A stretch of 10,459 bases of DNA from Escherichia coli. Its GTDB lineage: Bacteria; Pseudomonadota; Gammaproteobacteria; Enterobacterales; Enterobacteriaceae. Of the stretch, positions 3,323 to 10,459 are shown in pieces; position 1 is the first letter of the stretch, and each line of letters starts with the position of its first letter. The DNA is taken from the NCBI RefSeq assembly GCF_003334765.1, contig NZ_QOWT01000058.1; one strand, 5' to 3'. The notes beneath the pieces are model-generated. The model worked only from the letters and a program-made list of their open reading frames with translations, did not search any database and was not told the DNA's origin. A program made the position numbers and the translations under genes.

Positions 3323-3508
3323 ATACAGCGAACTCCATTGGTTTAGTTGGATATTTACTGTGCTGGACAAAAACGGTTTGCGGGGAAATCTTAGTTAAGT
3401 AGAATGACTGCGGGTGCTTGAGGCTATCTGCCTCGGGCATGGACACCAACGGCAGATAGAGAAAAGCCCCAGTTAACATTACGCGTCCTGCAAGACGCTT
3501 AACATTAA

Positions 3509-3590
3509 TCTGAGGCCAATTTCATGCTAGACACATGTAGGTTAGCCTCTTACGTGCCGAAAGGCACGGAGAAGCAGGCTATTGTTAACA
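3509..3590 (+). other. degenerate relE-3'end/hok-leader-like segment (paralogous remnant of the hokD translation-initiation region), no intact toxin ORF
   Basis: 3568..3582 GGAGAAGCAGGCTAT is identical to the hokD ribosome-binding site and start region at 6857..6871. The upstream hairpin CGTGCC-GAAA-GGCACG (3553..3568) parallels CACC-GAA-GGTG (6824..6834) with compensatory changes. 3509..3537 weakly resembles 6794..6818. The start position reads ATT and only 6 codons follow before TAA. Confidence 0.4.
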
Positions 3591-7025: not shown

Positions 7026-7083
7026 GAGACCCGGCGGGGGAGAAATCCCTCGCCACCTCTGATGTGGCAGGCATCCTCAACGC

Positions 7084-7115
7084 ACCCGCACTTAACCCGC
7101 TTCGGCGGGTTTTTG
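7084..7115 (+). terminator. rho-independent terminator after the relB-relE-hokD operon
   Basis: Hairpin CCCGC-ttcg-GCGGG (7086..7099) followed by TTTTTGTTTTTATTTT (7100..7115). Confidence 0.6.
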
Positions 7116-7839: not shown

Positions 7840-8889
7840 GTGCGGGTATTACTTAGACCTGTTCTGGTGCCTGAGCTTGGGCTGGTGGTCCTTAAGCCGG
7901 GCCGTGAATCCATACAGATATTTCATAATCCTCGAGTGCTGGTGGAACCGGAACCAAAAAGCATGCGTAATCTGCCATCCGGAGTCGTTCCTGCCGTTCG
8001 CCAGCCGCTGGCGGAAGACAAAACATTGCTGCCGTTTTTTAGTAACGAACGGGTGATTCGTGCTGCTGGCGGCGTTGGCGCATTGTCCGACTGGCTATTA
8101 CGTCATGTTACATCCTGCCAGTGGCCTAATGGCGATTACCATCACACTGAAACAGTCATTCACCGTTATGGTACCGGCGCAATGGTGTTGTGCTGGCACT
8201 GCGACAACCAACTGCGTGACCAGACATCGGAATCACTGGAGCTGCTTGCTCAACAAAATCTGACAGCATGGGTGATTGACGTCATCCGTCACGCAATAAG
8301 CGGTACGCAGGAGCGGGAATTATCTTTGGCTGAATTATCCTGGTGGGCGGTCTGCAATCAGGTGGTGGATGCACTACCTGAGGCTGTATCGCGTCGTTCG
8401 CTGGGATTACCAGCGGAAAAAATCTGCTCGGTGTACCGCGAAAGCGACATCGTACCGGGAGAGCAGACCGCCACCAGCATATTGAAACAACGCACAAAAA
8501 ATCTTGCACCGTTGCCTTACGCCCACCAGCAACAAAAATCACCACAGGAAAAGACGGTGGTAAGCATCACCGTTGATCCAGAGTCTCCGGAATCTTTCAT
8601 GAAGCTGCCTAAACGTCGCCGCTGGGTTAAGGAGAAATACACACGTTGGGTTAAGACACAGCCGTGTGCTTGCTGCGGTATGCCAGCCGACGATCCGCAT
8701 CATCTGATTGGTCACGGGCAGGGCGGAATGGGAACAAAAGCACATGATCTCTTTGTGTTGCCTTTGTGCAGAAAGCATCACAACGAGCTGCATACGGATA
8801 CAGTGGCATTTGAAGATAAGTATGGCTCCCAACTGGAGCTGATATTTCGTTTTATCGATCGCGCGCTGGCAATTGGCGTACTGGCGTAA
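7840..8889 (+). CDS. ydfU: YdfU-like DUF968 protein (HNH-like C-terminal motif)
   Basis: The track ORF 7801..8889 is trimmed to GTG 7840, which is preceded by GGAGG, giving 349 aa. The C-terminus CACCGMPADDPHHLIGHGQGGMGTKAHDLFVLPLCRKHHNELH has a Cys/His pattern like HNH/zinc-binding nucleases. Identity is from memory. Confidence 0.8.
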   Translation: MRVLLRPVLVPELGLVVLKPGRESIQIFHNPRVLVEPEPKSMRNLPSGVVPAVRQPLAEDKTLLPFFSNERVIRAAGGVGALSDWLLRHVTSCQWPNGDYHHTETVIHRYGTGAMVLCWHCDNQLRDQTSESLELLAQQNLTAWVIDVIRHAISGTQERELSLAELSWWAVCNQVVDALPEAVSRRSLGLPAEKICSVYRESDIVPGEQTATSILKQRTKNLAPLPYAHQQQKSPQEKTVVSITVDPESPESFMKLPKRRRWVKEKYTRWVKTQPCACCGMPADDPHHLIGHGQGGMGTKAHDLFVLPLCRKHHNELHTDTVAFEDKYGSQLELIFRFIDRALAIGVLA

Positions 8890-8902
8890 GTGGAGAACGA
8901 GC

Positions 8903-9655
8903 ATGAACCTTGAAGCCTTACCAAAATATTACTCCCCAAAATCTCCAAAATTGAGCGATGACGCTCCAGCGACAGGCACCGGTTGTTTAACAATTACGGA
9001 TGTAATGGCAGCGCAGGGGATGGTGCAGTCGAAAGCACCACTTGGGTTGGCCTTATTTCTGGCAAAAGTTGGTGTTCAGGACCCTCAGTTTGCGATTGAA
9101 GGCCTGCTAAATTACGCGATGGCACTGGATAACCCGACATTGAACAAATTGAGTGAAGAAATCCGGTTACAGATTATTCCTTACCTCGTGAGTTTTGCCT
9201 TTGCTGATTACTCCAGGTCTGCGGCAAGTAAGGCTCGCTGTGAGCATTGTTCAGGTACGGGATTTTATAATGTATTGCGCGAAGTGGTGAAACACTACAG
9301 ACGCGGGGAATCTGTAATCAAGGAAGAATGGGTGAAGGAACTATGTCAGCATTGCCATGGTAAGGGCGAAGCCAGCACAGCGTGCAGAGGGTGTAAGGGT
9401 AAAGGGATTGTTCTGGATGAAAAAAGAACCCGGTTTCATGGCGTACCGGTATATAAGATTTGTGGGCGTTGTAATGGAAACCGGTTTAGTCGTTTACCGA
9501 CCACGCTGGCACGACGTCATGTCCAGAAGCTGGTACCAGACCTGACCGATTATCAGTGGTATAAGGGGTATGCGGACGTCATTGGTAAACTGGTAACAAA
9601 GTGCTGGCAGGAAGAAGCATACGCGGAAGCGCAATTGAGGAAGGTGACGAGATAA
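8903..9655 (+). CDS. quuQ: Q-family late-gene antiterminator (QuuQ-like)
   Basis: 250 aa from ATG 8903, which has GGAG 6 nt upstream; the track ORF starts 10 codons earlier. Contains several CxxC pairs (CEHCSGTG, CQHCHGKG, CRGCKGKG, CGRCNGN) and is followed by a promoter-terminator pair arranged like lambdoid P_R'-tR'. Confidence 0.85.
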   Translation: MNLEALPKYYSPKSPKLSDDAPATGTGCLTITDVMAAQGMVQSKAPLGLALFLAKVGVQDPQFAIEGLLNYAMALDNPTLNKLSEEIRLQIIPYLVSFAFADYSRSAASKARCEHCSGTGFYNVLREVVKHYRRGESVIKEEWVKELCQHCHGKGEASTACRGCKGKGIVLDEKRTRFHGVPVYKICGRCNGNRFSRLPTTLARRHVQKLVPDLTDYQWYKGYADVIGKLVTKCWQEEAYAEAQLRKVTR

Positions 9656-9686
9656 ATGATTTTTGCTGAAGATGGCGACATGATGT

Positions 9687-9715
9687 TTGCATTTTTCAAA
9701 AAATATGGATAAAAT
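9687..9715 (+). promoter_or_regulatory. putative late promoter (P_R'-like sigma-70 promoter) downstream of quuQ
   Basis: -35 TTGCAT (9687..9692), 17-nt spacer, -10 TAAAAT (9710..9715), beginning 32 nt after the quuQ stop. Confidence 0.5.
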
Positions 9716-9760
9716 TTTTTCAACGATGGGCTTTGTATACCCGACGTTAAGAAAAAGTAG

Positions 9761-9790
9761 AAAACCCGCTGATGAGCGGGTTTTGTGCTT
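9761..9790 (+). terminator. rho-independent terminator (tR'-like, possibly bidirectional)
   Basis: Hairpin CCCGCT-gatg-AGCGGG (9765..9780) followed by TTTTGTGCTTT. An A-run precedes it, so it could also act on the minus strand. It lies about 50-60 nt downstream of the predicted start of the putative late promoter. Confidence 0.55.
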
Positions 9791-10076
9791 TAAATGGGGC
9801 AATGGTAATGTTGAATCTCATCCCGGGACTCATGTCTGTTAACTTATTATTTAGCTGGTGACTTGGTTATTTGCCTGATGTTTAAAATGTTTTCTTCCAG
9901 TACAATGTCCCTAAACACAATGAGTCTGCTTATTATATTATTAGCAGAGCTATTACGGCCAAAGTACAGCATAAGCTTTTAAAGCCAATCAACCAGTCAT
10001 CAAGACAGACGGGGTTATTCATAAAAACTCTCCATGTGTGATCCGATGGGGCCTGAAATTAAAGCTTTAATATAGC

Positions 10077-10289
10077 TCATGAAAGGTAAACATTGGCAGC
10101 TGAAGGGCCACGCAGACCATTTATCCGGCAAAATTCCACGCGTAATCCGGTGGTAATTTCTTCTGCATCGCGGAGATTGAGCGCTGAAACATGAAGCTGG
10201 ACATCGATACGACCATCGGATGGGGTGATAAGACCCTTGCCGCTTTTGCCGTCAAAGGTTTTGACAATTCCTGTCATTTTACGGGACAA
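10077..10289 (-). CDS. cspF: cold-shock-domain protein, CspF/CspH family
   Basis: 70-aa [73 protein letters not shown] with CspA-family motifs. It is convergent with quuQ. The first codon is TTG, with AAGGA 6 nt upstream. Confidence 0.8.
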
Positions 10290-10459
10290 AAAAATTCCTT
10301 AATACTGATAACTTGGCGCACTATACACACGTTCCTGAAGAAAGCTATAGTTTTTTGATGGGGTTGAAGATGGCTGGATGTCTAAGGAAGGTGCGAATAA
10401 GCGGGGAAATACTTCTCGGCTGACTCAGTCATTTCATTTCTTCATGTTTGAGCCGATTT

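Follow-up and report, generated by a model that had tools for sequence, protein, structure and literature searches.

In phage lambda, the best described of the closest systems, RNA polymerase at the late promoter PR' is held by a sigma-dependent pause element, a -10-like sequence that often carries a discriminator-like extension; the lambda element occupies +1 to +6 and pausing occurs at +16/+17 (bioRxiv 10.1101/2022.01.24.477500). Lambda Q contacts a 13-bp site, its arm touching positions 11-13 of this Q-binding element and also sigma region 4, which is repositioned just upstream of the pause element, while an N-terminal segment of the protein refolds into an RNA-exit nozzle; the action of Q is assisted by NusA (PMC9388147). 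In Shiga-toxin phages, constitutive termination of late-promoter transcripts at the terminator tR' gives rise, in uninduced cells, to the short RNA StxS (PMC7547250). Here we describe a counterpart of these systems in a stretch of 10,459 nucleotides of Escherichia coli DNA (contig NZ_QOWT01000058.1, assembly GCF_003334765.1), which we refer to as the window. We conclude, at a probability of roughly 85%, that window positions 9687-9791 are the late-gene regulatory cassette of a Qin-type lambdoid prophage, built like lambda PR'-qut-tR' (late promoter, Q-utilization site and terminator) and served by the antiterminator QuuQ. The sequence elements, their conservation, covariation in the terminator, the family of the Q protein, an RNA 3' end and the order of the downstream genes are established here; from them we infer where transcription begins at the Qin cassette, and also pausing there, the binding of Q and read-through in its presence. 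The kind of element is textbook, and the Qin instance, with its QuuQ-type Q, its lambda-identical pause element and its 67-nt leader, is unannotated.

We observed that window positions 8800-10385 match the Qin prophage of E. coli K-12 with 100% identity, and many other strains equally. K-12 coordinates were converted by way of the published ynfS coordinates (K-12 coordinate = 1652144 - window coordinate), such that the plus strand of the window is the minus strand of K-12. Full-length matches to the window came from non-K-12 strains, for example FORC 064. RefSeq gives the gene order, in the orientation of the window, as ydfU(+), ydfT/quuQ(+), a 29-amino-acid gene(-), cspF(-), cspB(+), ynfU(-), essQ/essD(+), ydfR(+), rrrQ(+), rzpQ(+) and cspI(+). 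The antiterminator gene and the parts of the cassette are as follows.

8903-9655, plus strand: quuQ (ydfT), from ATG at 8903 to the stop codon TAA at 9653-9655, a 250-amino-acid Q antiterminator (RefSeq: ydfT antitermination protein).
9687-9692, plus strand: -35 hexamer TTGCAT of the predicted late promoter (PR' equivalent), by direct reading.
9693-9709, plus strand: 17-nt spacer TTTTCAAAAAATATGGA, a candidate Q-binding element by its position, as in lambda.
9710-9715, plus strand: -10 hexamer TAAAAT, by direct reading and promoter scan.
9722-9730, plus strand: predicted start A9722 and pause element AACGAT (+1 to +6) with GGG (+7 to +9), together AACGATGGG, by homology to lambda.
9731-9738, plus strand: CTTTGTAT, a conserved stretch transcribed early, in which the pause is expected (+10 to +17), its position presumed.
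9722-9788, plus strand: predicted 67-nt terminated leader RNA, counterpart of lambda 6S RNA; 5' end by homology to lambda, 3' end by Term-seq.
9761-9791, both strands: intrinsic terminator, bidirectional by sequence (scan, fold, covariation), tR' for the leader on the plus strand and probably the cspF-ynfS terminator on the minus strand; core stem CCCGC at 9765-9769 with GCGGG at 9776-9780, T tract at 9781-9791.

An earlier interpretation of this DNA made from its letters and open reading frames (the sequence-only reading) had described quuQ as followed within 32 nt by TTGCAT-17-TAAAAT and, about 50 nt further on, by a strong intrinsic terminator. Both are present as described, the -35 hexamer lying 31 nt after the quuQ stop codon and the terminator hairpin (9761-9784) beginning 46 nt after the -10. 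Its assignment of the two to a lambdoid PR'-tR' arrangement on which Q acts is supported by the family of the Q protein, the identity of the pause element to that of lambda, conservation among phages and an RNA 3' end in K-12, which we take in turn.

With regard to the protein, comparison of QuuQ with Pfam gave two matches to PF03589 (Antiterm), at E values of 9e-31 and 1e-19, and one to DnaJ_CXXCXGXG. A phmmer comparison with lambda Q structures gave an E value of 4.6e-36 for 7UBM/7UBN and, when 4MO1 and 7UBJ are included, a range of 5e-36 to 1e-20. QuuQ residues 1-120 align with lambda Q residues 1-125, a part that includes the segment forming the RNA-exit nozzle in lambda Q, and QuuQ residues 160-250 align with lambda Q residues 117-207. 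Judged by this homology, QuuQ is a lambda-family Q protein, which argues that the lambda paradigm applies here rather than that of phage 21 or phage 82. The zinc-ribbon arm is enlarged by an insertion of about 40 amino acids with two extra CXXC motifs, making four in all versus two in lambda Q. This CXXC-rich arm spans QuuQ residues 113-190 (window 9239-9490) and is the source of the DnaJ-like CXXCXGXG match. Given the extended arm, the QuuQ subfamily may recognise its own site differently from lambda Q.

A generic promoter scan recorded the predicted late promoter as TTTGCA-18-TAAAAT, with 9 of 12 matches. However, positions 8800-10459 hold 6 promoter-like hexamer pairs versus 3.0 +/- 1.7 in shuffled sequences, so that the hexamer pair alone is not distinctive and evidence has to come from elsewhere. 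Such evidence is provided by the composite TTGCAT-N17-TAAAAT-N6-AACGAT, which occurs once in contrast to an expectation of 0.01 even when 3 mismatches are allowed, and by the 9-mer AACGATGGG, of which the window has a single occurrence against 0.11 expected. Lambda PR' reads TTGACT, 17 nt, TAAATT, TGACTC and AACGATGGG, and the window reads TTGCAT, 17 nt, TAAAAT, TTTTTC and AACGATGGG; thus the pause element with its GGG is identical to that of lambda both in sequence and in lying 6 nt from the -10. In lambda, AACGAT begins with an A at coordinate 44587, the PR' start; in the bioRxiv paper, position 3 of the pause element corresponds to lambda +3. By the same spacing we predict A9722 as the transcription start of the leader, in agreement with the start near 9722 that the sequence-only reading had named. 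The lambda Q site lies between the -35 and the -10, and the corresponding Qin spacer matches the lambda spacer (TATTGAATAAAATTGGG) at 11 of 17 positions. The sequence-only reading had proposed comparison with known Q-binding and pause-site sequences. The pause element proved identical to that of lambda; for the spacer, which resembles that of lambda in part, Q binding is presumed from position and conservation. A 51-amino-acid open reading frame at 9687-9842, carried as hypothetical in PhiR42_1, was rejected as a gene, as it starts upstream of the predicted transcript start and the post-terminator sequence is not conserved.

We used relatives of QuuQ to determine which parts of the cassette are maintained. 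Q proteins 93-100% identical to QuuQ were found in the phage records PhiR42_1, mEp460, the Stx2c and Stx2k converting phages and Salmonella phage 118970_sal3, and proteins in the same range of identity were also found in about 600 IMG/VR stretches, 80 of which were taken. The 160 nt that follow the Q stop codon gave 34 distinct leaders, and 33 of these were aligned, with the following results for invariant columns and mean top-base frequency.

-35: 6 of 6 columns invariant, 1.00.
Spacer: 14 of 17 columns invariant, 0.96.
-10: 4 of 6 columns invariant, 0.94.
AACGAT: 4 of 6 columns invariant, 0.99.
GGGCTTTGTAT (9728-9738): 8 of 11 columns invariant, 0.94; the sequence diverges just after it.
Middle of the leader: 8 of 26 columns invariant, 0.76.
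Hairpin: 2 of 16 columns invariant, 0.80.
After the terminator: 0 of 14 columns invariant, 0.52.

The -10 varies among the relatives to TAAGAT or TAGGAT. Because the conservation of the spacer exceeds what a promoter spacer needs, we regard 9693-9709 as a candidate Q-binding element. The terminator sequence varies by lineage and its pairing is kept: 98.8% of cells pair, against at most 55% when the partner is slid, and 3 of the 5 stem pairs are changed on both sides (GC to CG twice, CG to AU once), a covariation score reached by none of 500 shuffles. A terminator has also been annotated at the Qin-equivalent spot by the depositors of SfV and Ayreon, and it stands at the same distance in phages without cspF. 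Q and the leader precede lysis genes in the records of PhiR42_1, 2H10, mEp460, SfV, Salmonella 118970_sal3 and the Stx2k phage, the last with stx2AB downstream.

Among five of the relatives (L054, L052, L021, L051 and L086), the pause element reads AATGAT, nearer to the -10 consensus, in four loci and GACGAT in one; these variants could serve as natural tests of pause strength. In phage HannyBb (L009, 1296-3134) a diverged copy of the leader, with CAATGATGAG replacing CAACGATGGG, stands directly after Q and is probably dead; a second leader, 97% identical to that of Qin, follows after about 1.7 kb with only tiny predicted open reading frames and no tRNAs. PhiR63_1 has the same partial leader match as HannyBb (query 12-145, 97%).

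The terminator hairpin consists of AAAACCCGC-TGATGA-GCGGGTTTT (9761-9784), followed by GTGCTTT on the plus strand. A terminator scan called the same hairpin on the minus strand, with the tail CTACTTTTTC, and the presence of a tail on either strand suggests that the terminator is bidirectional. For the 66-nt segment 9723-9788 the computed folding energy is -24.7 kcal/mol (z = -5.3), a stability equalled by none of 200 shuffles. Mapping of RNA 3' ends, which the sequence-only reading had proposed as a check, is available from published Term-seq data for wild-type MG1655 (Adams et al. 2021, PMC7815308, supplementary file 1). This file lists an "orphan" 3' end at K-12 position 1642356(-), and the flanking sequence (TACCCGACG...GGGTTTTGTGC, then, beyond the end, TTTAAATGGG) puts it at window position 9788, 8 nt past the stem. 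The end is listed three times in a file that holds three conditions, and we assign it to LB at an optical density (OD) of 0.4, LB at OD 2.0 and M63, all with uninduced K-12. In these three conditions no 3' end was reported on the cspF strand at the terminator (9761-9791). A 3' end in uninduced K-12 is as expected for a constitutive PR' whose transcripts are terminated at tR', like the lambda 6S RNA in lysogens. Of 5426 complete E. coli genomes, 1422 (about a quarter) carry the leader, with no annotated RefSeq feature.

A second plus-strand Term-seq end was observed at K-12 1642188(-), window position 9956, in one of the three conditions (by its position in the file, probably LB at OD 2.0). It lies 8 nt after a hairpin, TCTGCT at 9925-9930 with AGCAGA at 9943-9948, that overlaps the ynfS stop codon and has no T tract. 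This end points to some transcription beyond tR', or to a start between 9792 and 9920, in either case antisense to ynfS.

By analogy with lambda, the cassette would operate as follows. RNA polymerase with sigma-70 would start constitutively at about A9722; sigma region 2 would re-bind the -10-like AACGAT(GGG) at +1 to +9, and polymerase would pause within the first ~13-17 nt. In cells without Q, it would escape and terminate at the hairpin, yielding the 67-nt RNA that ends at 9788. In cells with Q, QuuQ bound at the spacer would load onto the paused complex and render it terminator-resistant, presumably with assistance from NusA. Read-through of tR' would then proceed antisense over ynfS and cspF, through IS5 in this strain, in the sense direction through cspB and its terminator, and into essQ-ydfR-rrrQ-rzpQ.

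Several observations weigh against this assignment. The plus-strand T tract of the terminator is interrupted (TTTTGTGCTTT), and the Term-seq 3' end could belong to RNAs that extend beyond quuQ. Position 9722 is assigned as the 5' end by homology, and the published sigma-70 pause data (RNET-seq supplementary tables) have no entry for the Qin leader region. With about 40 extra amino acids in the QuuQ arm and a spacer only 11/17 identical to that of lambda, details of the Q site may differ. Finally, the prophage copy is decayed, with IS600, IS30, ISNCY and pseudogenes, and an IS5 lies downstream. Among other published data, the Cappable-seq and SMRT-Cappable-seq supplementary tables list nothing near K-12 1642422(-), which corresponds to window position 9722, or near the matching U00096.2 coordinate, and papers on sigma factors that used systematic evolution of ligands by exponential enrichment (SELEX) report binding in the cspB-cspF spacer and none for the quuQ-cspF spacer.

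Beyond the terminator, the window contains the following features.

9933-10022, minus strand: ynfS, gene for a 29-amino-acid small protein, convergent to the leader (by translation; RefSeq hypothetical protein WP_120795389.1).
10077-10289, minus strand: cspF, cold-shock-like protein gene, convergent to the leader.
10386-10459, no strand assigned: end of an IS5-family insertion sequence (IS) element lying between cspF and cspB; in K-12 and most genomes the match to the window stops at 10385.

Synthesis of YnfS has been shown by epitope tagging and immunoblotting (PMC6001520). In K-12, the same strand continues beyond the window end with cspB, a strong terminator (AAACCCGCTCAGGCGGGTTT and then a T run) and the lysis genes essQ-ydfR-rrrQ-rzpQ, a cassette that starts about 1.9 kb after the Q stop codon; essQ/essD, ydfR, rrrQ and rzpQ are likewise downstream on the same strand in K-12, EC4 and FORC 064, outside the window. 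The targets of the Qin cassette are cspB and then essQ-ydfR-rrrQ-rzpQ, and cspF-ynfS is a convergent cargo unit that shares the bidirectional terminator with the leader. The sequence-only reading had named cspF, and no lysis gene, as what follows: cspF is indeed there on the opposite strand, but ynfS had been overlooked, and the lysis genes lie on the quuQ strand beyond the window. As for the IS element, an ISKpn26/IS5-family transposase occupies this site in strain EC4 and widens the cspF-cspB interval from 300 bp to 1499 bp; K-12 lacks it. We take the terminal sequence 10386-10459 to be IS5. The end of the element falls within the divergent cspF-cspB promoter region, 96 bp ahead of the start of cspF, and could alter the expression of cspF/cspB. 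The insertion also puts the late promoter on one side and cspB with the lysis genes on the other.

The alternative that survives best is that the cassette is perfect in sequence and silent in the host: Q would not be produced, and the sole output would be the constitutive 67-nt RNA, perhaps with a trans-acting role like that of StxS. We consider this possible, at odds clearly below even. The prophage of FORC 064 is decayed, with upstream fragments of IS600, IS30 and ISNCY and several pseudogenes, and a broken upstream prophage together with the IS5 between the cassette and cspB/lysis genes means that the switch may rarely or never fire, in which case the routine product would be the 67-nt RNA. 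The 3' end at 9788 appears in all three uninduced conditions, as this alternative would have it; short RNAs derived from PR' can regulate, as StxS does (PMC7547250), and lambda 6S is present in lysogens. The leader also has an A-rich stretch, AAGAAAAAGUAGAAAA, upstream of its hairpin. A regulatory role for the RNA is opposed by other features of the leader. Its 3' tail, UUUUGUGC, is a poor Hfq-type U tail; no Rfam family matches at 9656-9800 at E values up to 1; and among the relatives the leader is conserved least in its middle, which argues against a conserved seed. We regard as doubtful the further proposal that the 67-nt leader is a trans-acting or cis-antisense regulator like StxS, and/or that Q-dependent read-through deliberately silences cspF-ynfS during induction.

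Slightly less credible again is the view that the cassette is in this position as a dedicated link, driving Q-dependent antisense control of cspF (and ynfS) and so coupling the late genes to a cold-shock paralogue. The sequence-only reading had suggested a regulatory link of this kind from the antisense course of read-through. The antisense part stands as a safe inference: under Q, transcription from 9722 would pass antisense over both ynfS and cspF. Phages 2H10 and PhiR42_1 keep the convergent layout, with cspF in the same position, so that transcription from their late promoter can arrive at the holin gene only by passing antisense through cspF, and one bidirectional terminator is common to the leader and the cspF-ynfS unit. 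The dedicated link, however, is unsupported. In four IMG/VR prophage contigs (L035, L038, L044 and L050), about 175 nt after the Q stop codon, 258 bp present in K-12 are deleted, which takes away ynfS together with the final codons of cspF; the rest of cspF is frameshifted, with the late cassette identical and intact, as is cspB-essQ. Elsewhere the same cassette stands before entirely different cargo: orf47/48 in SfV, a methylase in mEp460, tRNAs and stx2AB in the Stx2k phage, and other cargo again in Salmonella sal3. Since the cassette is kept with a decayed cspF or with unrelated cargo, it is conserved independently of cspF, and the conserved downstream targets are the lysis genes. The antisense reading of cspF thus seems to be a by-product of inserted cargo and not a regulatory link maintained by selection. 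Reported induction of cspF by azidothymidine (AZT) was considered as a possible product of antisense reads from late-operon read-through, and this was ruled out, as the library is strand-specific.

That the hairpin merely ends the quuQ and/or cspF-ynfS mRNAs, the hexamers being a coincidence in AT-rich DNA, is very improbable: hexamer pairs are indeed common locally (6 versus 3.0 expected) and the Term-seq 3' end is silent on where the RNA starts, but the expectation for a composite that includes AACGAT with the spacing of lambda is 0.01, the 33 leaders hardly vary in promoter, spacer and pause element while neighbouring sequence drifts, and the terminator keeps its distance in phages that have no cspF.

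Two observations were made elsewhere in the window. A strong Rfam match to the sok antitoxin RNA (RF01794; 104 bits, E 2e-23) occupies 3412-3583 on the plus strand, in a stretch without annotation in FORC 064 and just upstream of an ISNCY transposase fragment; this is probably a remnant or an unannotated hok/sok-type locus, distinct from hokD. A weak, sub-threshold similarity to isrK at 7034-7115 on the plus strand (25 bits, versus a gathering score of 50) lies over the hokD 3' end and terminator and probably reflects terminator shape only.

In the searchable literature we found no description of the Qin late cassette, quuQ/ydfT being mentioned there incidentally. Lambda-Qin recombinants reportedly revealed a functional Qin Q and lysis region (Espion et al. 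1983); a literature search returned nothing on this, and it is not counted as evidence here. The assignment of a late cassette at 9687-9791 does not overturn current understanding. It supplies a regulatory element missing from RefSeq in the 1422 complete genomes noted above, and it explains an "orphan" K-12 Term-seq 3' end as the tR' end of a prophage late leader. The same QuuQ-type cassette lies upstream of stx2 in the Stx2k phage, and Stx2c phages likewise carry this Q and leader, so that the properties of promoter, pause and terminator bear on toxin expression. The combination of a lambda-identical pause element, a doubled zinc arm and a leader of only 67 nt offers a comparison case for the mechanism of Q, and it could be that the leader RNA is itself functional.

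Among known systems, bidirectional terminators between convergent genes share with the Qin hairpin its GC-rich stem, bordered by an A tract and, at the opposite side, by a T tract; at Qin, an RNA 3' end has been reported for one strand only, that of the leader. The Qin leader also resembles StxS, in that a 3' end is found at the terminator in all three uninduced conditions, the leader 5' end being predicted. It differs in showing no detectable sequence relation to StxS and no Rfam match, and in that StxS is a 74-nt RNase E product of a longer precursor (PMC7547250) whereas the whole Qin leader is 67 nt. The closest relatives are SfV, mEp460, 2H10, PhiR42_1 and the Stx2c/Stx2k phages, which have a Q protein 93-100% identical to QuuQ, the same promoter, spacer and pause element, and a terminator at the same position; 2H10 and PhiR42_1 have the whole cspF/cspB layout as well. 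These QuuQ-type phages differ from Qin in terminator sequence and in cargo (a DNA methylase in SfV and mEp460; tRNAs and stx2AB in Stx2k), and the Qin copy is in a decayed prophage with IS5 downstream. With lambda PR'-qut-tR', the Qin cassette has in common a Q of the PF03589 family, a predicted promoter with a 17-nt spacer directly after Q, the identical pause element AACGATGGG at the same distance from the -10, and an intrinsic terminator followed by lysis genes on the same strand. In contrast to lambda, the Qin leader is 67 nt rather than 194 nt; QuuQ is only about 33% identical to lambda Q and has the ~40-amino-acid insertion with two extra CXXC motifs in its zinc arm; the spacer that is the candidate Q site is 11/17 identical; and about 1.9 kb of cargo, including the convergent cspF-ynfS unit, stands between tR' and the holin gene.

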